A stretch of 48,401 nt of DNA from Candidatus Altarchaeum sp. (lineage in GTDB: Archaea; Altiarchaeota; Altiarchaeia; Altiarchaeales; Altiarchaeaceae), in NCBI GenBank assembly GCA_018260615.1, contig JAGWDQ010000082.1, forward strand, positions 1 to 48,401, in the 5' to 3' direction. Of the stretch, positions 3,384 through 26,264 are shown one piece after another (the stretch's first letter is position 1; the number at the start of each line of letters is the position of its first letter). Below the pieces are notes generated by a model. It saw only the letters and a program-made list of their open reading frames with translations. It did not search any database and had not been told where the DNA came from. The position numbers and the translations under genes are program-made.

Positions 3384-4400
3384 TTGTTAGACAAAAAAAT
3401 GTACAAAAATAATACTATCGGAGTTGTTGTTCCCGCTTATAATGAAGAAAAATTAATTGAAGAAACACTGGGCGGCATTTTTAACTGCAAAACAGAGATT
3501 GATAAAATCTATGTTATTGATGATAAAAGCACGGATAAAACATTAGAAAAAATTAAGAAATTTAAAGAAGAGAACGATAAAAGCAACAAAATTTATATAA
3601 TACCTCATGAAAGGAATGGCGGTGTCGGAGCGGCGATATTTTCCGGATACAAACAGGCACTGAAAGACGGAACGGATATTGTAGTTGTCATGGCCGGAGA
3701 CCATCAGATGGATCCTTCGCAGCTTCCGAGAATGATTGAACCGCTCATTGCAGGAAGAGCGGACTACACAAAAGGAAACCGTCTTTTGGGCAGAGAATAC
3801 AGAAAAGGAATGTCAAAATGGAGATTCTTTGGAAATTCTTTACTTACATTGCTGACAAAAATTGCAAGCGGATACTGGCAAATTATGGATCCTCAAAACG
3901 GATATACTGCTATTTCCAGAAATTTACTTGAACGACTAAATTTAGACAATATTTATAAAAGCTACGGGTATTGTAATGATTTGCTGGTTAAGTTAAATAC
4001 ACTAAATGCAGTGGTTCTTGACATTTCCATGCCTGCAAGATACGGAAGAGAAAGGTCAGGAATAAATTACATAACCTATATCCATAAGGTCTCGTATCTT
4101 TTATTAAAGGACTTTTTCCTGCGGCTGATGATGAAATACGGTGTTTTAAGCTTCCATCCGCTGTTGGGTTTTTACATTTTTGGAATCATAATGACTCCTG
4201 CCGGACTGATACTGGCACTTGATGTTTTTTACGGTAAATTTATATCTCATGCTCCCGTCTCACAAAATTTTCCTTTGCTTGCGGCATTTCTCCTCATTAT
4301 AGGCATTCAGTTTATACTTTTTGCGATGTTATTTGATATGGAAATGGACCCAAGCAGGAAAAAAGAAGCGACTTTTGGAAAGAATAATGAGGAATTTTAA
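3384..4400 (+). CDS. GT2 glycosyltransferase (polyprenol-phosphate glycosyltransferase-like) with C-terminal TM helices
   Basis: VVVPAYNEE, VIDDKSTD, NGGVGAA, MAGDHQMDP motifs; two hydrophobic C-terminal segments. Confidence 0.9.
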   Translation: MLDKKMYKNNTIGVVVPAYNEEKLIEETLGGIFNCKTEIDKIYVIDDKSTDKTLEKIKKFKEENDKSNKIYIIPHERNGGVGAAIFSGYKQALKDGTDIVVVMAGDHQMDPSQLPRMIEPLIAGRADYTKGNRLLGREYRKGMSKWRFFGNSLLTLLTKIASGYWQIMDPQNGYTAISRNLLERLNLDNIYKSYGYCNDLLVKLNTLNAVVLDISMPARYGRERSGINYITYIHKVSYLLLKDFFLRLMMKYGVLSFHPLLGFYIFGIIMTPAGLILALDVFYGKFISHAPVSQNFPLLAAFLLIIGIQFILFAMLFDMEMDPSRKKEATFGKNNEEF

Positions 4401-4443
4401 AATTTTATAGAGAAAAAGGAATTTTTAAATAAATTTTACAAAA

Positions 4444-4630
4444 ATGACTGAAAAAAAGAAAAAGAAATTCAGGATGTTCAAAGAAGTCCCGGAAGATTAT
4501 GAACCACAAACAGAAATAGAAAAAAAGATATAGGGGTGCTTTTTTGAAAGCGGTCCCGGAATTATTATCATATAGAGTTGAAAAGGAAGATGGAACTGTT
4601 TATTATCGCAGAGTTGAGGTTTCTGATTGA
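4444..4630 (+). pseudogene. Putative antitoxin copy 1, frameshifted
   Basis: MTEKKKKKFRMFKEVPEDYEPQTEIEKKI*. An extra A (ATATAGGGG vs ATATGGGG in the other copies) creates TAG; the shifted frame continues GAFLKAVPELLSYRVEKEDGTVYYRRVEVSD*. Confidence 0.75.
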
Positions 4631-4708
4631 TATTTATTTATCTTTAAAAGAAATTTATAATAAAAATCAATAAAATAAAAATTAACAAAAACGGCCAAAA
4701 AAAAGAAA

Positions 4709-4864
4709 ATGGAATTTAAGGTCCCGGATGACTATGAACCGGATGATGAGAGGGTGAAGAAAATATGGGGTGCTTTTTTGAAGGCAGTCCCGGAATTATT
4801 ATCTTATAGAGTAGAAAAGGAAGATGGAACTGTTTATTATCGCAGAGTCAAACTTTCTGTTTGA
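4709..4864 (+). CDS. Putative antitoxin copy 2 (51 aa; upstream start degenerated to ACG at 4691)
   Basis: MEFKVPDDYEPDDERVKKIWGAFLKAVPELLSYRVEKEDGTVYYRRVKLSV*, translated by hand (below the ORF-track cutoff). Confidence 0.6.
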   Translation: MEFKVPDDYEPDDERVKKIWGAFLKAVPELLSYRVEKEDGTVYYRRVKLSV

Positions 4865-4933
4865 TCTTTGTCTTTCAAGAATGTTTTAATCTCATAAATT
4901 TAATTTATTAACCTAAAAGTAATATTTAGTGAA

Positions 4934-5107
4934 ATGACCAAAAAAAAGAAAAGGGAATTCAAGGTTCCGGATGACTATGAACCGGATGATGAAAGGGTGA
5001 AGAAAATATGGGGTGCTTTTTTGAAGGCAGTCCCGGAATTATTATCTTATAGAGTAGAAAAGGAAGATGGAACTGTTTATTATCGCAGAGTCAAACTTTC
5101 TGTTTGA
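4934..5107 (+). CDS. Putative antitoxin copy 3 (57 aa)
   Basis: MTKKKKREFKVPDDYEPDDERVKKIWGAFLKAVPELLSYRVEKEDGTVYYRRVKLSV*, translated by hand. Confidence 0.65.
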   Translation: MTKKKKREFKVPDDYEPDDERVKKIWGAFLKAVPELLSYRVEKEDGTVYYRRVKLSV

Positions 5108-5176
5108 TCTTTGTCTTTCAAGAATGTTTTAATCTCATAAATTTAATTTATTAACCTAAAAGTAATATTTAGTGAA

Positions 5177-5350
5177 ATGACCAAAAAAAAGAAAAGGGAA
5201 TTCAAGGTTCCGGATGACTATGAACCGGATGATGAAAGGGTGAAGAAAATATGGGGTGCTTTTTTGAAGGCAGTCCCGGAATTATTATCTTATAGAGTAG
5301 AAAAGGAAGATGGAACTGTTTATTATCGCAGAGTCAAACTTTCTGATTGA
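5177..5350 (+). CDS. Putative antitoxin copy 4 (57 aa), overlapping the PIN gene start by 41 bp
   Basis: Same protein ending KLSD*. A small gene overlapping the start of a PIN gene is the classic type II TA layout; antitoxin function is inferred from that layout only. Confidence 0.7.
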   Translation: MTKKKKREFKVPDDYEPDDERVKKIWGAFLKAVPELLSYRVEKEDGTVYYRRVKLSD

Positions 5351-5924
5351 TATTGGTATTGCAAGGGACCGTAATTCATCATATTTGATGAATTTAGCAT
5401 CAACAGGCAAGATAAAAATAGCAATTCCCGAGTATTCATTAGCAGAGGTAGATGGTAGAGTATCCTTTATTCTTCGCGAGCGAAAAAAGAAACTAAAAGA
5501 AAGCATAACTCTGATGAATGAACTTTCAAGAAGTGATTACAATAAGAAATATTCATCAGGTGCAATAGAGAATCTAAATATGCTTTTAAATCTCCTTGAC
5601 AAAGAAAAGAAATTTGTTGATGAGGCAATAAAAAGCATCCGGGATTTGTGTGTCGTGATCCCGCATACGCCTGAGATTCATATCAAAGCAGCGCTCAGGG
5701 ATTTAAGTTCAAAGCCGCCATTCAAGTTTAATGACTGCCAGATATATTTAGCAGCACTGGATTTTGCAGGTAAAAACAAAAATGACTGTAATATTATATT
5801 TTTAACAAAAGACAGAGAGGACTTTGACTATCCTGAAATCCATGATGAATTAAATGATAACAGAGTTAAGTTAATGTTTTCTTCCGGAGAATGTGTTAAA
5901 GAAGTTGTGGAGTTGATTGGCTAA
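5310..5924 (+). CDS. PIN-domain protein (VapC/DUF4935-like putative toxin RNase)
   Basis: PIN acidic motifs IIAESNFL, SLAEV, FNDCQIY, FLTKDREDF. Confidence 0.8.
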   Translation: MELFIIAESNFLIDIGIARDRNSSYLMNLASTGKIKIAIPEYSLAEVDGRVSFILRERKKKLKESITLMNELSRSDYNKKYSSGAIENLNMLLNLLDKEKKFVDEAIKSIRDLCVVIPHTPEIHIKAALRDLSSKPPFKFNDCQIYLAALDFAGKNKNDCNIIFLTKDREDFDYPEIHDELNDNRVKLMFSSGECVKEVVELIG

Positions 5925-5931
5925 ATTAAAC

Positions 5932-6189
5932 ATGAATCGTGATTTCACAATTAAAAAATAGAGGAAAGTTTGCAGTACAATAAAAGAAAATTATAAGACA
6001 TTAACTTTTGAGGAGTATTTAACCAGATCCAAAAATAAATTTATTATTTTAAGGCATGATGTTGACAGAATGCCTGAGAATGCACTAAAAACTGCAGAAA
6101 TTGAGCATGAATCCAGTATTAAATCAGCATACTACTTCAGAACAAACAAATCCGTCTTTAAACCGGAAATAATTAAAGGAATTGGTTAA
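5932..6189 (+). pseudogene. Deacetylase-like gene I, copy 1 (early TAG, 3' truncated)
   Basis: MNRDFTIKK*(TAG 5959-5961)RKVCSTIKENY...LRHDVDRMPENAL...KPEIIKGIG*; homologous to 7935, 9911, 13759 and 15666. Confidence 0.9.
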
Positions 6190-6222
6190 ATAATTATTTA
6201 TACTTTTCCTTTTAATTATTAA

Positions 6223-6256
6223 TACCTACATAAATTATACATAAAATCTGTAGGTA
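6223..6256. promoter_or_regulatory. Inverted repeat TACCTACA-N18-TGTAGGTA (possible operator), copy 1
   Basis: Perfect 8-bp inverted repeat around an AT-rich TATA-like spacer; identical to 14047-14080. Confidence 0.4.
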
Positions 6257-6378
6257 AATTCAGATATTTTCACGCATGTGAAATTGCAGGATTATGTAGT
6301 GGCTTTTTTAAAGCAAAGAAGATAAAATTAGTATAAATATTTTTTATCAAATATTTCTAAATTTAAAACAAATAAATA

Positions 6379-6428
6379 CCGAAAATCTTTGGGATTTTCA
6401 ATCTTTAAAAAATCGTCACGATTTTTAA
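6379..6428. repeat. Double-hairpin REP-like mini-element
   Basis: GAAAATC-tttgg-GATTTTC, linker AATC, TTTAAAAAATCG-tca-CGATTTTTAAA. Absent from the homologous intergenic region near 10900; same architecture as 10381-10425. Confidence 0.65.
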
Positions 6429-6486
6429 ATAACTGTATTTTTGTGAAAGGGAAATGTCCCGGTTGTTACTCTAAAATTTAAAAACA

Positions 6487-7911
6487 ATGAATCAAAAAGA
6501 ACTCCTTGAAATTATAGAAAAAGGTGAATCAGAAGAGAGAGAATTCAAAAAATCAACCGCCCAGTTAGAAAAGGGCATGAGAGCGCTCTGTGCTTTTTTG
6601 AACCACAAGGGCGGGGCAGTATATTTCGGAATTGATAATAAGACCCTGGTCGGACAGCAGGTCTCTGACCCCACCTTAAGATCAATATCTCAGAAAGTCA
6701 GGCAGAAGATAAAGCCGGAAATAACTCCGGAAATTACTGTTCATGGGGACGGCAGGGAGAAGATTATAAAAGTTGCAGTAAAAGAAGGACTTAATAAATT
6801 ACATTATCTTGACGGAGTTGCTTACAAAAGAGTCGGAACGGAAAATCCTCTAATTCCTCCCGAAGAAATTGAGAGAATTATCATGGAAAAGCGAAAAAAT
6901 ATCTGGGACTCTGAAATCTGCGAAGAAGCAAATTTGAAAGATATTGATGGGGAAAAAGTAAAATGGTTTTTGAGAACTGCAAAAATCAAAAGAGGTCTGA
7001 AGATACCTGAGAATACTCCCCTAAAAGAAGTGTTAACTAAACTAAAATTGCTCAAAAACAATAAGTTAACCAATTCTGCGGTGTTGTTATTTTCCAAAGA
7101 ATCAGAATTCCTGCAATCGGAAGTGAAATGTATAAGATTTTCAGGAAACGAATCTGTTAAACCATATATTGACTTTCAAACATTAGAAGGTAATGTTTTT
7201 GATCTGATAGATGAGGCAGAAAATTTTGTTCTCAGAAATATTAAAATGGCGATCTGGCTGGTCCCCGGACAAGTACAAAGAGAAGAAAAATACGAATACC
7301 CTCCGGATGCAATCAGAGAAGCAATAGCAAATGCGGTTGTGCACAGGGACTATGAATCCCCTTCAAAGGTTCAGGTCAGGATTTTTAATAATCGCGTGGA
7401 AGTGTGGAGTCCGGGGTTACTTCCAAAAGAAATATCAATTGAAGATTTGAAAAAAGAGCACAGGTCAGTTCCGCGCAATCCCCTTTTATTCAAGCAATTA
7501 TTTTGGGTTAAGTATGTTGAAGATGTTGGCGGCGGAACGGTTGACATGATAAACTGGTGTAAAGAGTGGGGGTTGCCGGAACCTGAATTTAAAATTATAA
7601 CAGGAGCATTGGTTGTAATTTTTAGATTGCCGCCGAATATAGAAGATCTGGAAAAGTTAGGACTAAATGAAAGGCAAAAAAAAGCAGTAGATTATGTAAC
7701 CAAACATACACACATAACAAATAAGGACTATCAACTGCTAAACAATACTACCCGATACACTGCCACAAGAGATTTTACAATTCTCGTTGATAAAGGAATT
7801 TTTAGAACAACTGGCGATGGTAGAAGAAATCTAAAATATATTTTGGTGCAAAATGCGTCAAAAATGCGTCAAAAAATGCGTCAAAAATCAAAAGCAGAAG
7901 GGGAATTGTAA
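6487..7911 (+). CDS. AlbA_2 (Schlafen-like) + HATPase_c_4 (RecG-C-like) + winged HTH protein, intact copy
   Basis: N-terminal GESEEREFKKS...CAFLNHKGGAVYFGID; YPPDAIREAIANAVVHRDY, VWSPG, PRNPLL, EDVGGGT; C-terminal LNERQ...ITNKDY...GDGRRNLKY. Confidence 0.9.
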   Translation: MNQKELLEIIEKGESEEREFKKSTAQLEKGMRALCAFLNHKGGAVYFGIDNKTLVGQQVSDPTLRSISQKVRQKIKPEITPEITVHGDGREKIIKVAVKEGLNKLHYLDGVAYKRVGTENPLIPPEEIERIIMEKRKNIWDSEICEEANLKDIDGEKVKWFLRTAKIKRGLKIPENTPLKEVLTKLKLLKNNKLTNSAVLLFSKESEFLQSEVKCIRFSGNESVKPYIDFQTLEGNVFDLIDEAENFVLRNIKMAIWLVPGQVQREEKYEYPPDAIREAIANAVVHRDYESPSKVQVRIFNNRVEVWSPGLLPKEISIEDLKKEHRSVPRNPLLFKQLFWVKYVEDVGGGTVDMINWCKEWGLPEPEFKIITGALVVIFRLPPNIEDLEKLGLNERQKKAVDYVTKHTHITNKDYQLLNNTTRYTATRDFTILVDKGIFRTTGDGRRNLKYILVQNASKMRQKMRQKSKAEGEL

Positions 7912-7934
7912 GGGGAATGAAATAATATTAAAAA

Positions 7935-8500
7935 ATGCCTGATTTCACAATCAAAAAATACTGGAAAGTTTGCAGTGCAATAAAAGAAAATTATGAGACA
8001 TTAACCTTTGAGGAATATTTAACCAAATCCAAAAACAAATTTATTATTTTAAGGCATGATGTTGACAGAATGCCTGAGAATGCTTTAAAAATTGCAGAAA
8101 TTGAGCATGAATCCGGCATTAAATCAACATACTATTTCAGAACAAACAAATCCGTCTTTAAACCGGAAATAATTAAAGGAATTGCTTCACTCGGACATGA
8201 AATTGGCTACCACTATGAATGTATGGATAAAGCCGCAGGAAATCCTGAGAAAGCAATAAAAATATTTGAGGACGAATTGAATAAATTCAGGAAAATCTGT
8301 GATGTCAAAACAATCTGCATGCACGGAAACCCATTAACAAAATACGATAACTGGGATTTATGGAAAAGCTCTGATTATAAAAAATTTGAAATTTTGGGTG
8401 AAGCATATCTTTCGCTGGGAAATGATATTGCTTACTTTTCAGATACGGGAAGAAACTGAGGAAATAAATATAAAGTTAAAGATTTTAATGTAAACCTAGA
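7935..8500 (+). pseudogene. Deacetylase-like gene I, copy 2 (most complete; TGG->TGA nonsense at 8457-8459)
   Basis: LRHDVD, GHEIGYHYE, CMHGN NodB-like motifs; ends DTGRN* where the other copies read DTGRNWGNKYKVKD, and the frame continues GNKYKVKDFNVNL. Confidence 0.85.
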
Positions 8501-8653
8501 TCGTAATATGAATAATAATAACAGTGAATATGAAAATTTTATTTGCTGCTTAATCACCATTTCACCGAAAAGAATGTATGATTTTAACATCCATACAATA
8601 AAAACTATAAATTTATATACAATAAATTTATCTGCATTATATTACTTTTTAAA

Positions 8654-9817
8654 ATGTCATTTACATTAAAAGCCGCAAAAGGGGATGATTTCATAAACAG
8701 AAAAGAGATAATTAATGAGATAGTCACAACTATTTCAGGTAACTCCAGGATTGGATTTGCATTGTATGGAAGCAGAAGAGTGGGTAAAACATCTATCTTT
8801 AAGGAAGTTCAAAGAAAACTTAAAAGCAATGAAGATATAGTCGTTATTTATTTTTCTGTATGGGAAGTGATGCCAAAAACAATAACAAACTTTGTGAGAT
8901 ATTTTTCAGATACTGTTCTTGAGGCATATAGATATAAAATACCTATTAAGCGCAGGGTTGTAGAACTTGTGAAATATCCTGTTGAAGTTATAAGAGATTA
9001 TTTAAGGGATGTTAAGATAAGTGCAAAAGTTATGGACGAGATTGAATTTTTACTTACCTTTGATGATAAAAAAGAGAAAAATTACGGTGACCTGATAAGG
9101 AGAGCATTTGATCTTCCTGAGAAATTAGCGGCTGAAACAAATACAAAATGTGTTATACTCATGGATGAATTTCCATCTATAGTGGATCTGAAAAATGAAT
9201 CAAAAATAGGACAGGATGTAATTGGAGTAATAAGGACACTGTATGAAGACCAGAAAAATACTGTTTTATGTGTTTCGGGTTCGATAAGAAAAACAATGGA
9301 AATTTCAGTTCTTTCTTCAATTTCTCCATTTTACAGGCAATTTATAGTGCGTGAAATAAAACCCCTGTCAAAAGATAATGTAGATGAGTTACTTAAGAAA
9401 AACTGTAGAAAAGAAATTGATGAAAAGGCATTAGAAAAAATTTTTGAGTTTACAAAAGGTATTCCCTTCTATGTTCAACTTTTGGGTAAAAGAATTGATG
9501 CGGTGGAATGCAATAAAATCACATGTCAAGAAATAAAGCAGGTTATAGCAGATACACTTGAGGAGGAAGGTGCAATTCTTTTTAATAGTGAATTTTTTAA
9601 TTTGAGTGCAAGGGAACAGAAAATTATAATCGCTATGTCAACAAAGAATTTACATTCTCCGGGGGATATCGCCAAAGAAACAAAAGAAGAAACAAGCACC
9701 ATATCCACATATCTTATATATCTCCAGGAAAAAGGATTTATAACAAAAAGGAGGAAAGGCATATATTCAATTGATGATTTGGTCTTTGAAAAATGGATTG
9801 CATGGAAATATGGATGA
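8654..9817 (+). CDS. Archaeal AAA ATPase (ATPase_2 family) with C-terminal winged helix
   Basis: FINRKE, Walker A GSRRVGKT, Walker B ILMDEFP, GIPFYVQ, C-terminal HTH-like segment. Confidence 0.85.
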   Translation: MSFTLKAAKGDDFINRKEIINEIVTTISGNSRIGFALYGSRRVGKTSIFKEVQRKLKSNEDIVVIYFSVWEVMPKTITNFVRYFSDTVLEAYRYKIPIKRRVVELVKYPVEVIRDYLRDVKISAKVMDEIEFLLTFDDKKEKNYGDLIRRAFDLPEKLAAETNTKCVILMDEFPSIVDLKNESKIGQDVIGVIRTLYEDQKNTVLCVSGSIRKTMEISVLSSISPFYRQFIVREIKPLSKDNVDELLKKNCRKEIDEKALEKIFEFTKGIPFYVQLLGKRIDAVECNKITCQEIKQVIADTLEEEGAILFNSEFFNLSAREQKIIIAMSTKNLHSPGDIAKETKEETSTISTYLIYLQEKGFITKRRKGIYSIDDLVFEKWIAWKYG

Positions 9818-9910
9818 AAATCAAAGACGATCCTCATAGGTGGGAGCAGTTTAATAGTAAGTGAATAATATGTCAGGAAATTGATAATACGAAGTTTATA
9901 GTAAAATAAG

Positions 9911-10712
9911 ATGCGTGATTATACAGTTGAAAAATATAGAGAACTATGCAGTGCAATAAATGAGAATTATAAAACTTTAACATTTAAAGAATATTTAAAT
10001 AATTCAAATTTTAAAGATAATTTTGTTATTTTAAGGCATGATGTTGACAGAATGCCTGAGAATGCTTTAAAAATTGCAGAAATTGAGCATGAATCCGGCA
10101 TTAAATCAACATACTATTTCAGAACAAACAAATCCGTCTTTAAACCGGAAATAATTAAAGGAATTGCTTCACTCGGACATGAAATTGGCTACCACTATGA
10201 ATGTATGGATAAAGCCGCAGGAAATCCTGAGAAAGCAATAAAAATATTTGAGGACGAATTGAAGAAATTCAGAGAAATCTGTGATGTTAAAACAATCTGC
10301 ATGCACGGCAATCCGTTAACAAAATACGATAACAGGGAATTAGGGAAAAAATATGATTTTAAAAGAATACTCACACATACTGAAACCTTCGGTTTCAATC
10401 TTTAAAAAACTACAAGTTTTTTAAAAAGCCACAAAGATACAGGGTAACTCTGCTCTTTGTGTCTTCGTGTCTCTGTGTGATTTTCAAATTCCAAAGGATT
10501 TGAAAATATCCGAACGAAGTGAGGTTAAAATAATAAAACGAACTTTCCTGTACGATAAAAAATTTGAAATTTTGGGTGAAGCATATCTTTCGCTGGGAAA
10601 TGATATTGCTTACTTTTCAGATACGGGAAGAAACTGGGGAAATAAATATAAAGTTAAAGATTTTAATGTAAACCTAAATAGTAATACGAATAAAGATATA
10701 GAACATAATTAG
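9911..10712 (+). pseudogene. Deacetylase-like gene I, copy 3, split by a ~190-bp insertion
   Basis: ORFs 9911-10405 and 10467-10712 give the N- and C-parts (...KYDN / KKFEILGEAYLS...) that are contiguous in copy 2; divergent 5' allele MRDYTVEKYREL. Confidence 0.9.
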
Positions 10713-10784
10713 TTGTTTATAAAATATGAATAAAAATTTTATTGCCGTAACTGTGGATATTGAAGACTGGTATCATATTCCTTC
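10026..10784 (+). repeat. 759-bp direct repeat, copy A (partner 15775-16533, offset 5749)
   Basis: No differences seen by eye from TTATTTTAAGG to CATATTCCTTC; ORF ends 10405/16154 and 10712/16461 share the 5749 offset. Confidence 0.9.
10365..10556. repeat. Hairpin-rich non-coding insertion (REP/MITE-like) in deacetylase copy 3; boundaries approximate
   Basis: Stems TGAAACC-ttc-GGTTTCA, TTTAAAAAACT-aca-AGTTTTTTAAA, CACAAAGA...TCTTTGTG, TTTTCAAAT(T)CC-aaa-GGATTTGAAAA; absent from copy 2. Confidence 0.7.
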
Positions 10785-10848
10785 AGTTACTGGTTCGCCA
10801 TTTTCAAAATTCAAAGATGTTGATGAATTTTTCAGTAAATGCATGTGA
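10726..10848 (+). pseudogene. 5' fragment (38 codons) of polysaccharide deacetylase II
   Basis: MNKNFIAVTVDIEDWYHIPSVTGSPFSKFKDVDEFFSK then CM*; same protein as the start of 16475-17386. Confidence 0.9.
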
Positions 10849-10965
10849 AATTGCAGGATTAGGTAGTGGATTTTTTATCAGATATTTCTAAATTTAAAAC
10901 AAATAAATAAATATATTTTTGTGAAATGAAAATATCTTGGTTGTTAGCCATAAAATTTAAATACG

Positions 10966-12385
10966 ATGGACCAAAAGCAACTCCTTGAAATTATAGAAGA
11001 AGGTGAGTCAGAGGGGGCGGAATTCAAAAAATCAACTGCCCAGTTAGAAAAGGGTCTGAGAGCAATATGTGCTTTTTTGAACCACAAGGGCGGGGCAGTA
11101 TATTTCGGAATTGATAATAAGACCCTGGTCGGACAGCAGGTCTCTGACCCCACCTTAAGATCAATATCTCAGAAAGTCAGGCAGAAGATAAAGCCGGAAA
11201 TAACTCCGGAAATTACTGTTCATGGGGACGGCAGGGAGAAGATTATAAAAGTTGCGGTAAAAGAAGGACTTAATAAATTATATTATTTAGATGGAGTTGC
11301 TTACAAAAGAGTCGGAACGGAAAATCCTATAAGCCCTCCGGAAGAAATTGAAAGAATTATTATGGAAAAGCGAAAAAACCGTTGGGGCGAACAAATCTAT
11401 CAAGATGCAATTCCGGAAGATTTAGATTGGGGAAAAAAGGTGGTTTCTGAAAGAAGGAAAGAAACTGAAGAGAATGAATATTCCTGAGAACTTGCCAATT
11501 GACGAGATTTTGACGAGATTAAATATGTTAAAAGACGGGGGATTAACAAATGCGTCCGTACTGCTTTTTAGCAAAGAACCAAAATTTATTCAGTCCGAAG
11601 TTAAATGCATTGTGCTCCCAACAACAGAGTTCGTAAAGCCATATGTAAGTTATCATTCTTATGAAGGAAATTTATTTGATCTGGTTGATAAACCACTGGC
11701 ATTTGTATTAGAAAACATTCACAGACCTTTATGGCTGGAATACGGAAAAGCAGCAGCAATAAATCCTTATGAAATTCCGGAAGATGCTGTACGAGAATGT
11801 ATTGTCAATGCAGTTGTTCACAGGGACTATGAATCCCCATCCAAAGTTCAGATAAGGATATTTCCCGACAGAGTTGAGATATGGAACCCGGGTAATTTGC
11901 CCTGCCAGTTAAAAATAGATGACTTGAAAAAACCACACCCCTCTTTACCAAAAAATTCGTTAATATTCAGACAATTTTACAGGGCAGGTTATGTAGAAGA
12001 TGTTGGAGGCGGAACCACAGACATAATACAATTATGTAAAGACAGTGAATTAGCAGAACCAAAATTTGAAGAGAAAATGGGTTATTTGATTGTGACAATA
12101 TATCGTTCTGTTTTGACAGAAAAACATCTTGACGATATGAATATCAGCGAAAGACAAAAAAAAGCAATTAATTATATGAAGACACACGGAAAAATTAAAA
12201 GAACAGAATACGAGAAATTACATGGATTATCAGAGAGGAGTGCTAACAGAGAATTAAAAGAGATGGTTATGAAAAAAATCGTCAAAAAAACAGGCAGGGG
12301 CCCCACAACTTTTTATGTTATGACGGGATATGGCGAGATATGGCGAGATATTGATTTGATTAAAAAAAGAAAGGGAAGCAGATAA
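10966..12385 (+). pseudogene. AlbA_2-HATPase-HTH paralogue 2, split by a frameshift near 11430
   Basis: ORFs 10966-11487 and 11474-12385 together align with 6487-7911; the +1 frame before 11474 reads RWFLKEGKKLKRMNIPEN vs KWFLRTAKIKRGLKIPEN. Confidence 0.85.
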
Positions 12386-12818
12386 CCGGACAATTGAAAC
12401 CCTGAAGCAGAAACACGAATCAACGCCATATAATCCTCTTTTGCTTGAGCATTTCTTTTGGGTCAAGTATGTTGAAGAGGTTGGAACAGGAACAAATAAA
12501 TTGATTGATTGGTGTAAAAGATGGGATTTACCTGAGCCGGATTTTGAATTTACAGGAACAAGTATTGTTGTAACATTCCGGAAATCTAAGCTTACAGATG
12601 AATATTTAAGTGCTCTGGAGTTAAATGAAAGACAAATAAAAGCAGTGGAGTATGTGAAAAATAACAAAGAGATAGACAACAAAACATATAGAAAACTGAA
12701 TGATATTGGAAAGGTTATATCCGCAAAAGAGTTAAATGATATGGTAATAAAAAAGATATTGAAGATCGCTGGTGAGGGCAGAGCAAGGAAGTATGTTTTG
12801 AACGATTTGAACGATTAA
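12384..12818 (+). pseudogene. Orphan C-terminal module (end of HATPase + HTH) of an AlbA_2-type paralogue
   Basis: Starts abruptly at NRTIETLKQKHES with no start codon; first ~139 bp near-identical to 13113-13251, then a different HTH tip. Confidence 0.8.
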
Positions 12819-12826
12819 TGAACGAT

Positions 12827-13531
12827 TATGCGCATTTTTGAACCACAATGGTGGGGCAGTATATTTAAGGGCACCGGAGTTACTGGAAAAATGATAGATT
12901 TTAAAGTAATAGATTTTACAATAACATCGCGATGGCGGCATGGATTGAAGCAGGAAAACTTCAACGACAGGAGAAATGGGACTATCCTCCCGACGCGATA
13001 AGAGAAGCACTTGCAAATGCGTTATGCCACAGAGAATATGAGACATCTTCTGCCGCACAAGTGAGGATATTTGATGATCGCATGGAATTCTGGAATCCCG
13101 GAATACTTCCAAATAACCGGACAATTGAAACGCTGAAGCAGAAACACGAATCGAAGCCATATAATCCTCTTTTGCTTGAGCATTTCTTTTGGGTCAAGTA
13201 TGTTGAAGAGGTTGGAACAGGAACAAATAAATTGATTGATTGGTGTAAAAGGTGGGGACTTCCGGAACCATTGTTTGAACTTATTGTCGATGACCTGGTT
13301 GTGACATTCAGAAAATATCAAATTACAGATGAAATTTTGAAAGAGCTAAATGAAAGGCAGAAAAAAGTAGTGGAGCATTTAAAAATTAATAAAAAAATAA
13401 CTCGTTTGGAGTATGTAACACTGACCGGGTGTTCGGAAAGAACTGCCTTTAGAGATATTGAAAATTTAATAAAAAAAGAATTCTTAATAAGAAAGGGCGA
13501 TGGGAGGAAAACATATTATGAGTTGTCATAA
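12827..13531 (+). pseudogene. Deletion-riddled AlbA_2-type paralogue (N-terminal scrap, mid scrap, intact C-terminal half)
   Basis: 12827-12870 reads CAFLNHNGGAVY; then KGTGVTGKMIDFKVID; ORF 12932-13531 has YPPDAIREALANALCHREY...LNERQ...GDGRKTYY. Confidence 0.8.
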
Positions 13532-13583
13532 ATGGCACGAATTGGGAAAAAAATATCCGGTGTAACGAACAACGCCGAAATGA

Positions 13584-13757
13584 GCCAAACAAGGAGATGA
13601 GCATAGTGAAATTATGGCGAAACATCCGTATGAGATGCCTCAAGAGGTGGTACGTGAAGCAGTCGTTAACGCACTTGTTCATAAACAATATACATTACTG
13701 TCTAAATTCAATGACCAGTTATACTCTTGCGAGATATTGCGAGATAAACAAAAATAA
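13584..13757 (+). pseudogene. Further AlbA_2-type remnant: HATPase motif joined to a 3' tail
   Basis: Frame of ATG 13614 reads MAKHPYEMPQEVVREAVVNALVHKQY, matching PYEIPEDAVRECIVNAVVHRDY; followed by TTGCGAGATA x2. Confidence 0.7.
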
Positions 13758-13758
13758 A

Positions 13759-14013
13759 ATGCGTGATTTCACAATTAAAAAATACTGGAAACTATGCAAC
13801 ACAATAAAAGAAAATTATGGAACATTAACTTTTGAGGGTTATTTAACCAAATCCAAAAACAAATTTATTATTTTAAGGCATGATGTTGACAGAATGCCTG
13901 AGAATGCTTTAAAAATTGCAGAAATTGAGCATGAATCCGGCATTAAATCAACATACTATTTCAGAACAAACAAATCCGTCTTTAAACCGGAAATAATTAA
14001 AGGAATTGGTTAA
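13759..14013 (+). pseudogene. Deacetylase-like gene I, copy 4 (3' truncated at KGIG*)
   Basis: MRDFTIKKYWKLCNT...KPEIIKGIG*; same breakpoint and downstream ~70 bp as copy 1 (offset 7824). Confidence 0.9.
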
Positions 14014-14046
14014 ATAATTATTTATACTTTTCCTTTTAATTATTAA

Positions 14047-14080
14047 TACCTACATAAATTATACATAAAATCTGTAGGTA
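14047..14080. promoter_or_regulatory. Inverted repeat TACCTACA-N18-TGTAGGTA just upstream of the ATPase B start
   Basis: Ends 7 bp before ATG 14088; identical to 6223-6256. Confidence 0.45.
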
Positions 14081-14087
14081 AATTAAA

Positions 14088-15623
14088 ATGTTTGTTAACA
14101 GAAAAAGAGAGATGGAGTTTTTAGAGAGGGTGGGCAAGCAGTTTGAACGCGGTGTAAAGGTTCCAATTGCAATAATCGGATTGAGAAGAATTGGCAAAAC
14201 AGAATTGATTCAAAAATTTCGTGCGAATAAATCAGAAATTTTAATGCCGTATATGAATCTGGAAGGAACAACATCATCACCGGAAACTTATGCACAGGAT
14301 TTTTATTTAGCGTTTTTGAAGGAGATATTGAGAACTAAAAAAATGAGATTTGAAGCAGTTGGTTCAAAAAGGGAACAGATAATTGCAATTTCGTCAAAGC
14401 TTGGAGAAGGAATATACTTTAAGTCCCGGGGATTGATAAGTGCCGTTGATTCAAGAGACTATAATGAACTTTTGAAGGTTTGCTTTTCCCTCCCGGAAGA
14501 AATTGCAGAGGAATTAAAAACGAAAGTTATGTTTTTTGTTGATGAGTTCCAGGAATTTGATGACTTAAACAATTATCGCTTTGGTGATGTTTTTAAGATA
14601 ATGCGTTCTGTTGTTGAGAAACAGAAGAATGTGCTTTATGTAATATCTGGTTCTGTTATCTCTTTCATGGAGCGTGTTGTTGGCGATCCGGCAAAACCGT
14701 TCTTTAATCAATTCAGGATACTAAAATTAAGATATTTTACAAAAGAGGACTCGATAAAACTGGTAAAATGTCTGTTAAAAGGGGTGGAAATTGATGAAAA
14801 GACCTCGCATGAAATATTTAAAAACACACTTGGACATCCATTCTACATAACCGCAATATGCGAAAGGATCGCTCTCGAATCCGCACTGGAAGTTGATGTG
14901 GATTTGGTCAGATACGCAACACTAAAGGAAATTTTAGATGTTAACGGAAAGATAAACATACTATTTAAATACATATTTGAAAATTCACTGCAAAAAGCAA
15001 ATAGAAAAGGGCATTTAAAGGAAATTTTGGTTTATTTGGCAGAAAATGAGGGAGCGACTCTAAGTGAAATTGCAAGATATTTAAATAAACCAAGCGGACA
15101 AGTGAGTAATTATCTTTCTTCGCTCTTACAGACCGACCTGATTTTTGGAAGCGAAAAAAAGTACTATTACAGGGACGCCATCTTTAAGTTCTGGATAGCA
15201 AAGACGCAACTTGGGAAAGATATTGGAATAAGCAGAGAGAAAAAAGCAACGGATGATTACATTTCAGAACTTGAAGAGAAGTATATGAGGGCATCAACAG
15301 AACTTGGAAGAGCAAAGGAATACGAATTTAAAGTCAAACTTGAAAAAGCACTTGGATTAAAACTTGATAATTACATAAGTGAAGACTGACAGATTGAATT
15401 TGATCTGATTGGAAAGAAAGGCAAAAGCATGCATATCATTGAGATTAAGTGGAGGAATAAAACAGTAGATTATGAAGATGTGCAGAACTTTCTAAATAAG
15501 GTTTCAAGATCCGGATTTAAAAATGCCAAACTATATTTTGTTTCAAAGACGGGATATACAAAAGAGGCAGAGGCGTTGATGAAAAAAGAAGACATAATTA
15601 TATTGGAAAATGACCGGGAGTGA
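14088..15623 (+). pseudogene. Archaeal AAA ATPase + wHTH + C-terminal PD-(D/E)XK (DUF234-like) nuclease, interrupted by one in-frame TGA at 15387-15389
   Basis: Walker A GLRRIGKT, Walker B FFVDEFQ. ORFs 14088-15389 and 15429-15623 are in the same frame; read-through gives ISED*QIEFDLIGKKGKSMHIIEIKW (E-x-D...E-x-K). Confidence 0.8.
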
Positions 15624-15665
15624 AATATATTCTAAAAACCTGACGATTAGGGTGACGATTATAAA

Positions 15666-16461
15666 ATGCGTGATTTCACAATTGAAAAATACTGGAAACT
15701 ATGCAACACAATAAAAGAAAATTATGGAACATTAACTTTTGAGGGTTATTTAACCAAATCCAAAAACAAATTTATTATTTTAAGGCATGATGTTGACAGA
15801 ATGCCTGAGAATGCTTTAAAAATTGCAGAAATTGAGCATGAATCCGGCATTAAATCAACATACTATTTCAGAACAAACAAATCCGTCTTTAAACCGGAAA
15901 TAATTAAAGGAATTGCTTCACTCGGACATGAAATTGGCTACCACTATGAATGTATGGATAAAGCCGCAGGAAATCCTGAGAAAGCAATAAAAATATTTGA
16001 GGACGAATTGAAGAAATTCAGAGAAATCTGTGATGTTAAAACAATCTGCATGCACGGCAATCCGTTAACAAAATACGATAACAGGGAATTAGGGAAAAAA
16101 TATGATTTTAAAAGAATACTCACACATACTGAAACCTTCGGTTTCAATCTTTAAAAAACTACAAGTTTTTTAAAAAGCCACAAAGATACAGGGTAACTCT
16201 GCTCTTTGTGTCTTCGTGTCTCTGTGTGATTTTCAAATTCCAAAGGATTTGAAAATATCCGAACGAAGTGAGGTTAAAATAATAAAACGAACTTTCCTGT
16301 ACGATAAAAAATTTGAAATTTTGGGTGAAGCATATCTTTCGCTGGGAAATGATATTGCTTACTTTTCAGATACGGGAAGAAACTGGGGAAATAAATATAA
16401 AGTTAAAGATTTTAATGTAAACCTAAATAGTAATACGAATAAAGATATAGAACATAATTAG
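15666..16461 (+). pseudogene. Deacetylase-like gene I, copy 5, split by the same ~190-bp insertion (about 16114-16305)
   Basis: ORFs 15666-16154 and 16216-16461; 3' part identical to copy 3. Confidence 0.9.
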
Positions 16462-16533
16462 TTGTTTATAAAATATGAATAAAAATTTTATTGCCGTAAC
16501 TGTGGATATTGAAGACTGGTATCATATTCCTTC
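15775..16533 (+). repeat. 759-bp direct repeat, copy B
   Basis: Matches 10026-10784. Confidence 0.9.
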
Positions 16534-17386
16534 GGTTACAGGTTCGCCGTTTTCAAAATTTAAGGATGTGGACGAATTTTTCAGCAAATGGGATAAAAGA
16601 TATGATTACCTGACTGAACCGACAAAAAGGGTCTTAAACATGCTTGATGAATTAAATATAAAGGCAACCTTTTTTGTTGTTGCAGATGTTGTCGAACATT
16701 ACCCCGGATTAGTCGAAGAAATAGCAGATAGGGGACATGAGATTGGATGTCATGGATTACATCACGCATGCAAGATACATCCAAAGACAAAGAAGCCATT
16801 AATGTCAACTGAGGAATTTGAAAAAAGAACACTGAAAGCAAGGAGAATACTTGAGAAAGCATCAGGCAAGGAAGTAATCGGATACAGATCACCAAATGCG
16901 TTCATTGGCGGCTGGATGCTTGATTCGCTGAAAAAATTGGGGTTTGAGTATGACTCCTCCGTGAGCAAAAATTCCCTTTACAATAAAACGGACTCCCAAC
17001 TTACCAATGTTACTACAGTACCATATCATCCAAAAAATGACTGTCTTGACGCTGAAATAAATGATCCGAAAAATAAGGGACTACAGGAGATTCCCTGGCC
17101 ATACTTTGATTTTATGGGATTTAAATTCCCAACTGCAGGCGGTCCAATGCTCAGGTTTTTAGGTTCGGGATACATTATGCTGGGATTAAAACAAAGTTTA
17201 AAAAGGAGCAGTACAGTTTTTTATTTTCATCCGATTGATATTTCAAATGAAAAATTCCCGAATATCGGTAAAGGAAGACCATTATATTGGATCATTAAAG
17301 GAGAAACCATTGAAAACAGAATTAAATATATATTAAAAAATACCAAAGCAAATTTTGGCTGTTGTAGTGAAATGCTGCAAATTTAA
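16475..17386 (+). CDS. Polysaccharide deacetylase II (NodB/CE4 with DUF3473-like C-terminus)
   Basis: TVDIEDWYH, KATFFVV, GHEIGCHG, GYRSPN, YDSS, FYFHPIDI. Confidence 0.9.
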   Translation: MNKNFIAVTVDIEDWYHIPSVTGSPFSKFKDVDEFFSKWDKRYDYLTEPTKRVLNMLDELNIKATFFVVADVVEHYPGLVEEIADRGHEIGCHGLHHACKIHPKTKKPLMSTEEFEKRTLKARRILEKASGKEVIGYRSPNAFIGGWMLDSLKKLGFEYDSSVSKNSLYNKTDSQLTNVTTVPYHPKNDCLDAEINDPKNKGLQEIPWPYFDFMGFKFPTAGGPMLRFLGSGYIMLGLKQSLKRSSTVFYFHPIDISNEKFPNIGKGRPLYWIIKGETIENRIKYILKNTKANFGCCSEMLQI

Positions 17387-25500: not shown

Positions 25501-25821
25501 ATGGAACACTTTATGAAAGATGATGCTCTGGGATATTTTGTACAGCGAATTCGTGAGCAGTTAGATAATAATCTTAAACGGATTATTTTATTTGGTTCGA
25601 AGGCTCGCGGAGATGATGTGGTGGGTTCTGACTATGACTGTCTGGTAATTGTAGACGCGGTTTCACGAAAAATCAATGATATTGTAGATAAAGTGGCAGG
25701 TGAAACCCTCTATCAATATAACACAGTATTTTCTGTAGTTCTCATCTCGGAAGAAAAATATAATCGTCAAATTTACAATCCACTCTTGATGAATATTAAC
25801 AAGGAGGGGACTATATTATGA
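25501..25821 (+). CDS. Minimal nucleotidyltransferase (MNT) antitoxin
   Basis: LFGSKARGD...SDYDCLVIV; 4-bp overlap with the HEPN gene. Confidence 0.85.
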   Translation: MEHFMKDDALGYFVQRIREQLDNNLKRIILFGSKARGDDVVGSDYDCLVIVDAVSRKINDIVDKVAGETLYQYNTVFSVVLISEEKYNRQIYNPLLMNINKEGTIL

Positions 25822-26264
25822 ACAAAAATAAAATTCTCATGGAACAATTGGAAACAATGATACGAAAGGCTGAACGTTCACTTGCTTCTGCCAAACGGCA
25901 GATTGAAGAAGGCGATTATGACTTTGCATCGTCTCGCGTTTACTATGCTGCTTTTTACGCGATGGAAGCCATTCTCCTGACTGAAAACATGGTGTTCTCC
26001 AAACATGGTGCCGTTATTGGTGCCTTTAACCAGCATTTCATCAAACCAGGTATTTTTCCAAAAGAATTCAGCAAGCTAATCACTCGTATTTTTCGTGAAA
26101 GGCACATCGGAGATTATGAATTTGATTTAAGTATCGGAGAGGATGAAGCAAAAGAAGATCTTGAGCATGCTGAAAGAATAGTGAAAAATATCACGAGTTA
26201 CTTAACCAGAGAAGGATTTATAGAGTACAAATTAGGGGCGGAAGAAAAAGAGGAAAACTTATAA
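25818..26264 (+). CDS. HEPN domain protein (MNT-HEPN pair)
   Basis: SRVYYAAFYA, KHGAVIGAF, RHIGDY. Confidence 0.85.
   Translation: MNKNKILMEQLETMIRKAERSLASAKRQIEEGDYDFASSRVYYAAFYAMEAILLTENMVFSKHGAVIGAFNQHFIKPGIFPKEFSKLITRIFRERHIGDYEFDLSIGEDEAKEDLEHAERIVKNITSYLTREGFIEYKLGAEEKEENL

Follow-up and report, generated by a model that had tools for sequence, protein, structure and literature searches.

Tandem remnants of a deacetylase-like gene beside a surface-glycan cluster in Candidatus Altarchaeum: a probable stack of recombination scars

How are accessory and defence-type genes gained in archaea whose chromosomes are tightly packed and show no integrases or transposases? The process is poorly understood, and the question is raised by a single contig of an uncultivated groundwater archaeon, Candidatus Altarchaeum sp. 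(JAGWDQ010000082.1, assembly GCA_018260615.1). The contig was analysed in its full length of 48,401 nucleotides (nt) and is called the window throughout; it is contig C82 of a metagenome-assembled genome (MAG; G000) with 148 contigs and a completeness of 87%, and the names of near-identical proteins likewise point to Candidatus Altiarchaeum or Altiarchaeales. Most of it is a same-strand surface-glycan cluster comprising glycosyltransferases, sugar-nucleotide enzymes, an acyl-CoA module and amidotransferases. At the upstream edge of this cluster, five partial copies of one deacetylase-like gene, here called deac1, alternate with accessory genes of other families. Our analysis favours, with a probability of roughly 0.6, a reading in which this array is a stack of recombination scars that arose by serial insertion anchored in deac1 and was subsequently modified by gene conversion and decay. 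The locus would thus be a readable record of several insertion events at one gene, each with a duplication of the gene start of a different length, and the cost is visible: the anchor gene is destroyed.

The array is bounded by a family 2 glycosyltransferase gene (GT2, 3384-4400) and by deac2 (16475-17386, + strand), an intact gene with Polysacc_deac_1 and DUF3473 domains, with which the live genes of the glycan cluster begin. Repeat finding, a five-way alignment and self-BLAST recovered five + strand copies of the 5' part of deac1 (c1 to c5), starting at 5932, 7935, 9911, 13759 and 15666, and confirmed the same-strand alternation with cargo that a preliminary description of this DNA had reported. 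The cargo comprises a PIN_12 protein, an AlbA_2/HATPase_c_4 protein, an ATPase with ATPase_2 and winged helix-turn-helix (wHTH) domains (ATPase A), a second AlbA_2 gene with debris, and an ATPase_2-wHTH-Mrr_cat nuclease (ATPase B). The families named in that description hold, but its "AlbA_2 paralogues" resolve into one frameshifted gene and three orphan fragments, and ATPase B turned out to carry an in-frame TGA.

Three nested structures are recognizable in which a target sequence (T) stands on both sides of an insert of 1.4-2.9 kb. Their left border is common to all three and lies 5-8 nt upstream of the deac1 ATG, and the flanking repeats measure 258, ~590 and 936 nt. The shortest T surrounds the ATPase B unit (14012-15660, a 76-nt upstream region followed by the gene at 14088-15623) and is formed by c4 (13754-14011, nt -5 to 253 of deac1) and the start of c5 (15658-16442), which are 99.2% identical. 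The T of ~590 nt surrounds the ATPase A unit (8516-9902) and is formed by c2 (7927-8515, nt 1 to ~581) and c3 (9903-10841); this unit consists of a 138-nt upstream region and an intact gene for 387 amino acids (aa) at 8654-9817, assigned by domain scan. The longest T, formed by c3 and c5, surrounds the second AlbA_2 gene and its debris (10842-13753), and it includes a miniature inverted-repeat transposable element (MITE)-like insert and 38 codons of deac2.

All five deac1 copies of the window are dead. Copies c1 (5932/5938-6187, nt 1-253 only, with a TAG at codon 10) and c4 end at the same breakpoint, nt 253, and both run into the same 82 nt that precede ATPase B. Behind c1 this sequence (6188-6269) is a remnant of the ATPase B upstream region with the first two ATPase B codons, and together with c1 it is 93% identical to 14012-14093. 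Copy c2, which is free of the MITE-like insert, has a TGA (8457-8459) at a conserved codon where relatives have Trp, and it ends in an Asn-rich linker. In c3 and c5 a composite MITE-like insert of ~190 nt (~10365-10554 and ~16114-16303) disrupts the reading frame, which ends in FGFNL and a stop; both copies are joined to deac2 at position -29, and codons 1-38 of deac2 follow in c3 at 10726-10841. The insert is made up of at least three short interspersed repeat families with more than 100 matches across G000 and many in the genus relatives G001-G003, and when the deac1-deac2 segment was searched against the DNA of 40 relatives, most of the matches were to this repeat. The last ~60 codons of deac1, missing in c2 and c5 as in the other copies, are absent from the rest of the MAG as well.

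Decay has also affected the cargo. The second AlbA_2 gene, which together with its upstream module fills 10842-12385, is split by a frameshift into open reading frames (ORFs) of 173 and 303 aa. It is followed by debris (12386-13753) comprising three orphan AlbA_2 C-terminal fragments (12441-12818, 12932-13531 and 13614-13757) and a 40-nt N-terminal piece (12827-12866). ATPase B is interrupted by the in-frame TGA at 15387-15389; an intact 511-aa form from another assembly (P0138) has Gly at this codon. Reading of TGA as Trp was rejected as an explanation, given this Gly, the normal appearance of long window ORFs under table 11 and the presence of other genes that end in TGA. As it stands, the array is mainly a well-preserved but decaying fossil record and not a working device.

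The deac1 copies are mosaics. The 141-bp core that had been described as identical in the last four copies was placed correctly and is exact in c2 to c5, and c1 matches it with 94-95% identity (135-136 of 143 positions). It equals the longest exact match between c3 and c4 (from 10026 and 13868), and c2 and c3 are exact over 238 nt (from 8044 and 10026). Within nt 1-110, the identity of c3 with c2, c4 and c5 reaches only 74-75%, against 76-80% with outgroup contigs of the CCXY groundwater series, and the c3 start is two codons longer, as in other lineages. Over nt 111-253, in contrast, c2 to c5 are 99-100% identical and the outgroup stands at 81%. The jump from ~75% to 100% falls at nt ~81-115, and the first 115 nt of c3 are a divergent allele.

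Copies c3 and c5 furthermore share an exact tract of 759 nt (10026-10784 and 15775-16533) that reaches into deac2 and whose 5' flank is ~75% identical. Beyond its 3' end, all eight differences within the next 18 codons (deac2 codons 20-37) are synonymous, where only 19% of random changes would be. Such a pattern is impossible for a dead fragment, and the c3 and c5 versions must therefore have drifted apart while both were functional alleles, in different lineages, before they were united. These observations support the view that deac1 sequence has been a substrate of homologous recombination. The proposal of deac1 as a homology landing pad stands to this extent, but no live landing gene is left.

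Further evidence comes from other public assemblies, in which exact proteins were looked up and contigs recorded by protein. Copies like c2, c3 and c4 are each recorded on one 53,323-nt contig of another assembly and there only; a c5-like copy is recorded on two contigs, the longer of which is the same 53,323-nt contig; and the intact ATPase B (P0138) is again found on this contig only. The exact PIN, small ORF, first AlbA_2 and ATPase A proteins are very probably also located there, since it is the longest of the two to four contigs recorded for them. A second contig, of 38,805 nt, probably holds c2- and c3-like copies together with AlbA_2. Several copies and their cargo thus occur together elsewhere in non-identical sequence, and the array is not an accident of one assembly. 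Even a defect is shared, for the c4-like copy (P0136) of the 53,323-nt contig shows the same truncation, GIG followed by a stop. The cargo had been called strain-specific, a description that is not supported by these contigs; the array rather looks fixed at strain level.

The copies also vary together within strains. Both c4 and c5 read KFVIL and MPDNAL in the 53-kb strain versus KFIIL and MPENAL in the window; c2 and c3 read KQEII in both other strains versus KPEII in all window copies; and in the 53-kb strain the start of the c5-like copy is of the c2 type. This co-variation indicates concerted evolution by gene conversion, which accounts for the identical core in this genome. At the protein level, one further sequence (P0003) joins the ORF upstream of c4 to an uncut deac1 copy, which is the arrangement to be expected of an empty site before arrival of the ATPase B unit, and an intact deac1 allele of 265 aa (P0131) is known from a related population.

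Related loci were compared as well. In a sister species (G002), which has the same LamG and GT2 genes, what comes next is confined to 40 codons of ATPase B, 50 codons of ATPase A and a stretch from the 3' part of deac1 (L078, G002:C83, 2600-3713), and the site continues with a 113-aa ORF and a TumE-family toxin gene. The site behind GT2 thus varies across the genus, with the G002 state mostly reflecting collapse, and of the synteny differences that had been predicted among relatives it is this genus-level variation that was found, but no turnover at strain level. A remnant of an AlbA_2 gene precedes deac1 in CCXY groundwater contigs, which suggests that the adjacency of AlbA_2 and deac1 is probably ancestral. 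In the related groundwater contig L034 (CCXY01000414.1, 623-1900), the end of deac1 is formed by part of a second deac1 start of diverged sequence, followed by a start fragment of DUF354 (codons 1-37) and then by the block of deac2 and thiolase genes. In G002 DUF354 lies directly after deac1; in view of both arrangements, the 8-kb block from deac2 to HisF looks like an earlier insertion that duplicated a gene start.

We therefore consider the following course of events, in which the ancestral order would have been AlbA_2, deac1, glycan genes. Accessory genes would have been added serially beside deac1 by the cell's own recombination and without a dedicated enzyme. At one end, homologous pairing in deac1 (and deac2) would anchor the incoming DNA; at the other end, a copy already in place would be entered by an illegitimate join, which lies at nt 253 in some cases and in the Asn-rich linker near nt 585 or at codon 38 of deac2 in others. 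Each time, a shortened deac1 start would stay behind on the left side of the added gene, the structure called "insertion with long target duplication". At least some of the incoming DNA would have brought diverged deac1 and deac2 alleles of other lineages, and the tandem copies would then have traded sequence by gene conversion, yielding the identical 141-bp core and the 759-nt tract. The array has also decayed, as seen in its nonsense codons, in the frameshift, in the inserted MITE and in the missing 3' end of deac1. Because the MITE and the linker are present in some copies and absent in others, an order of events can be proposed: ATPase A came first, after which the MITE inserted and deac1 lost its 3' end; the second AlbA_2 gene was next, and ATPase B came last. 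Scars of the same type adjoin the array in the form of repeated PIN gene starts (243-nt units, see below), and the DUF354 start fragment in L034 is another example. An excess of local direct repeats with a border at a gene start or end, seen across the genome (54 pairs versus ~22 expected), also speaks for this reading.

Several points weigh against this reconstruction. The illegitimate joins and any microhomology at them are putative, as the hints of an empty site come from proteins, and P0003 may be no real allele and instead reflect the way the assembler went through the 231-nt repeat of c4 and c5. The exact identity over 759 nt is possibly in part a repeat collapse, as the MAG is probably based on short reads. 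The identical breakpoint of c1 and c4 demands an extra step, e.g. duplication of a unit or its re-integration. Finally, the AlbA_2 cassette has one and the same left end in two contexts (6274 and 10841), which hints at a discrete unit and is not predicted by a purely illegitimate join.

Some of these points are accommodated by a different and, in our judgement, rather unlikely scenario, in which the units behave as cassettes that need no recombinase. A cargo gene with a deac1 start fragment would loop out as a circle by RadA-type homologous recombination between flanking copies and would integrate again at any deac1 copy, be it in its own or in a different Altiarchaeum cell, the homology acting as a portable, att-like site. 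Recombination between c4 and c5 would give exactly the P0003 form; the junction of deac1 nt 253 with the ATPase B upstream region was used twice, in c1 and c4 (at 93% identity); the AlbA_2 cassette keeps its left end in both contexts; and G002 keeps a piece of a second ATPase B copy. A sixth unit points in the same direction. On contig C70 (L023, 9900-11600), next to Hdr-like genes, two short internal or 3' deac1 remnants are followed by an intact AlbA_2 gene of 457 aa and by 85 nt of the deac1 start, and the contig ends 99 nt after this last piece. If the scenario were true, circle formation and re-integration would be a recombinase-free analogue of cassette exchange and would explain the many gene-end duplications in Altiarchaeum genomes. 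However, the same copies and cargo on the 53-kb and probably the 38.8-kb contig leave no turnover to be seen among strains, none of the units encountered had new cargo, and with so many parts being pseudogenes, selection for a working system is not evident.

It is quite improbable that the array arose purely by segmental duplication and deletion inside one genome, with no import and with paralogues diverging in place. Tandem amplification as such is clear directly upstream of the array, where about four units of 243 nt (4437-5399, + strand; period 243, 3.5 copies, 91% matches) each consist of a 57-aa ORF and the first ~18 codons of the PIN gene, the full PIN gene being present only from the last unit. 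Local duplications are moreover frequent genome-wide, and c4 and c5 are 99% identical. Yet the cargo genes are mutually unrelated, the 5' end of c3 is diverged like a gene of another lineage while the rest of that copy is identical, and eight of eight synonymous differences in a dead fragment can by no means come from neutral decay in place.

We likewise attach little credence to a dedicated, so far unknown insertion machinery that would act genome-wide, e.g. tied to small hairpin elements, and would make long target duplications at gene starts or ends, having hit this site several times. The 2.2-Mb genome holds 133 low-copy local direct-repeat pairs (at least 60 nt, at least 85% identity, 0.25-12 kb apart), most numerous on contigs C104, C60 and C84, and in 54 of them (~41%) a border lies at the start or end of a gene that is kept whole, versus ~22 (~17%) under random placement. 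Hairpin repeats are furthermore located in the AlbA_2 upstream module, in c3 and in c5. However, comparison of the three cassette types revealed no motif common to their left ends, the mosaicism points to ordinary homologous recombination, and no candidate enzyme was identified. Pfam scans revealed no integrase or transposase domain in window ORFs of at least 110 aa, in agreement with the preliminary description, and a six-frame search of the entire genome for PF00589 hit a single location (C79:140-625) and none by the array. The window contains no tRNA or Rfam elements and, except for one junction palindrome, no inverted repeats of at least 30 nt; neither the left nor the right unit ends have a common motif, and no attC-like site was detected among them.

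That strain variants of one locus were stitched together serially by the assembler is very improbable, for although the MAG consists of 148 contigs and the exact repeats of 231-759 nt are longer than usual k-mer sizes, the four different junctions between deac1 or deac2 fragments and cargo upstream regions are unique sequences that must exist in reads, the non-identical 53,323-nt contig has c2-, c3- and c4-like copies and ATPase B together, and remnants of these genes persist at the corresponding place in the sister species.

The array had also been likened to an integron, and it does resemble one as a same-strand row of single-gene units at one place. Archaeal integrons have reportedly been described (Ghaly et al. 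2022). Unlike integrons, which are defined by IntI, attI and attC, the array has no integrase, no attI and no attC-like folded sites, and the borders of its units are copies of a coding sequence that vary in length. The spacers from a cargo stop to the next deac1 ATG measure 7, 23, 93 and 42 nt and so leave no room for attC-like sites in most units. With no shared site of this kind, no platform and no live landing gene, the comparison fails.

A much closer parallel is "insertion with long target duplication" (Nobusato et al. 2000, as cited in Furuta, Abe and Kobayashi 2010), described in the latter account for bacterial restriction-modification genes (PMC2853133). The array agrees with one part of the definition used there (insert below 20 kb, direct repeats above 30 bp, mobility gene absent); on the other part, an empty site with a single repeat copy in a related genome, P0003 and P0131 give hints at the protein level. 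As in those cases, gene units of 1-3 kb without a mobility gene are flanked by direct repeats that are copies of the target and far exceed transposon duplications. It differs by duplications of 258-936 nt, several of them nested at one gene, by its PIN, AlbA_2 and ATPase cargo, and by the mosaic nature of the repeats. As no archaeal case passed the screen presented in PMC2853133, our reading would carry this type of insertion beyond the restriction-modification genes of bacteria, into an archaeon and to cargo of other kinds.

Homology-facilitated illegitimate recombination (de Vries and Wackernagel 2002; Prudhomme et al. 2002; both as cited in PMC5361080 and PMC3240628) is similar in its homologous anchor on one side, which is matched here by the identity step at nt ~81-115 and by the exact tract that gives way to synonymous differences only, and in gene gain without a site-specific recombinase. 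As far as these citing accounts go, experiments were made only in a few bacteria, whereas the process proposed for the array is read from scars in an uncultivated archaeon. The orphan arrays of Rhs, contact-dependent inhibition (CDI) and type VI secretion system (T6SS) effector-immunity loci, which form by sequential displacement (Jackson et al. 2009; Kirchberger et al. 2017, PMC5361080), also show conserved gene fragments in alternation with variable modules of conflict type. Such arrays grow as one insertion follows another, and homologous recombination then carries them from strain to strain. In those arrays, however, the conserved part and the variable module form one toxin gene and older modules are pushed downstream, whereas the repeat described here is the 5' end of an unrelated gene for a sugar-modifying enzyme, which is left dead, and each cargo gene is a separate gene. 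A literature search returned nothing relevant on Altiarchaeales in connection with gene conversion or tandem arrays.

The name deacetylase for deac1 is fair but weak. Its family comprises proteins of ~255 aa, with at least 7,971 relatives scored, many of them in Methanosarcinales, and the relatives obtained from the genome-contig scan are all distant (44-60% identity). No Pfam deacetylase profile matched; the best NCBIfam match was PdaB (E 2e-6), far under the cut-off, with PdaA also sub-threshold, and a sequence search of the PDB with the deac1 family gave zero matches. The predicted structure of the intact 265-aa relative P0131 has a mean confidence (pLDDT) of 85.5, and the top-ranked Foldseek matches of this model are mostly CE4 enzymes, e.g. 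2vyo (TM score 0.61 on the target), 7fbw and 5jmu. The scores are weak and consistent, and they suggest a CE4/NodB-fold deacetylase.

The cargo genes belong to conflict-associated families, although PADLOC matched them to no complete system. Partial matches at the domain level were obtained for AlbA_2 (pAgo-associated and SIR2-associated domains) and for the ATPases (candidate PDC-S27), and none for PIN. For the further claim that the array couples receptor variation to defence cargo, we found no evidence. Two further cargo genes are intact: the PIN_12-domain protein of 204 aa (5310-5924, + strand; PF16289, E 5e-16), whose start is overlapped by the last 57-aa ORF, and the first AlbA_2 and HATPase_c_4 protein of 474 aa (6487-7911, + strand; domain scan). 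With regard to a possible type II toxin-antitoxin pair with PIN, the 57-aa ORF matched no known family. Upstream of the first AlbA_2 gene lies the AlbA_2 upstream module (6274-6486, + strand), with an interspersed hairpin repeat of ~60 nt at 6373-6433.

Both AlbA_2 genes show affinities elsewhere in the genome. Their first ~480 nt (6487-6972 and 10966-11460) are 85-92% identical to AlbA_2 genes on C79, C99 and C23 and the remainder is much more diverged, which suggests that AlbA_2 paralogues may have recombined in their conserved 5' part. An AT-rich module of 40-60 nt upstream of both genes (6339-6446 and 10869-10928) is also present before unrelated genes at C53:36282-36341 and C22:6334-6390, one of which encodes a 696-aa protein with a hydrophobic N-terminal stretch; the module may be a shared promoter or leader.

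Two observations concern genes on either side of the array. An MNT-type nucleotidyltransferase gene (106 aa) and a HEPN gene (148 aa) are placed tightly between DUF354 and PIG-L in the window (25501-26264), and on a related contig (L036) the PIG-L homologue lies directly after DUF354; judged from this gene order, the pair looks like an insertion without flanking duplication. In G003, three tandem GT2 copies with a period of 1460 nt fill a 3.6-kb contig (L080, G003:C103, 41-3542), and this triplet may be either a real amplification or an assembly loop.

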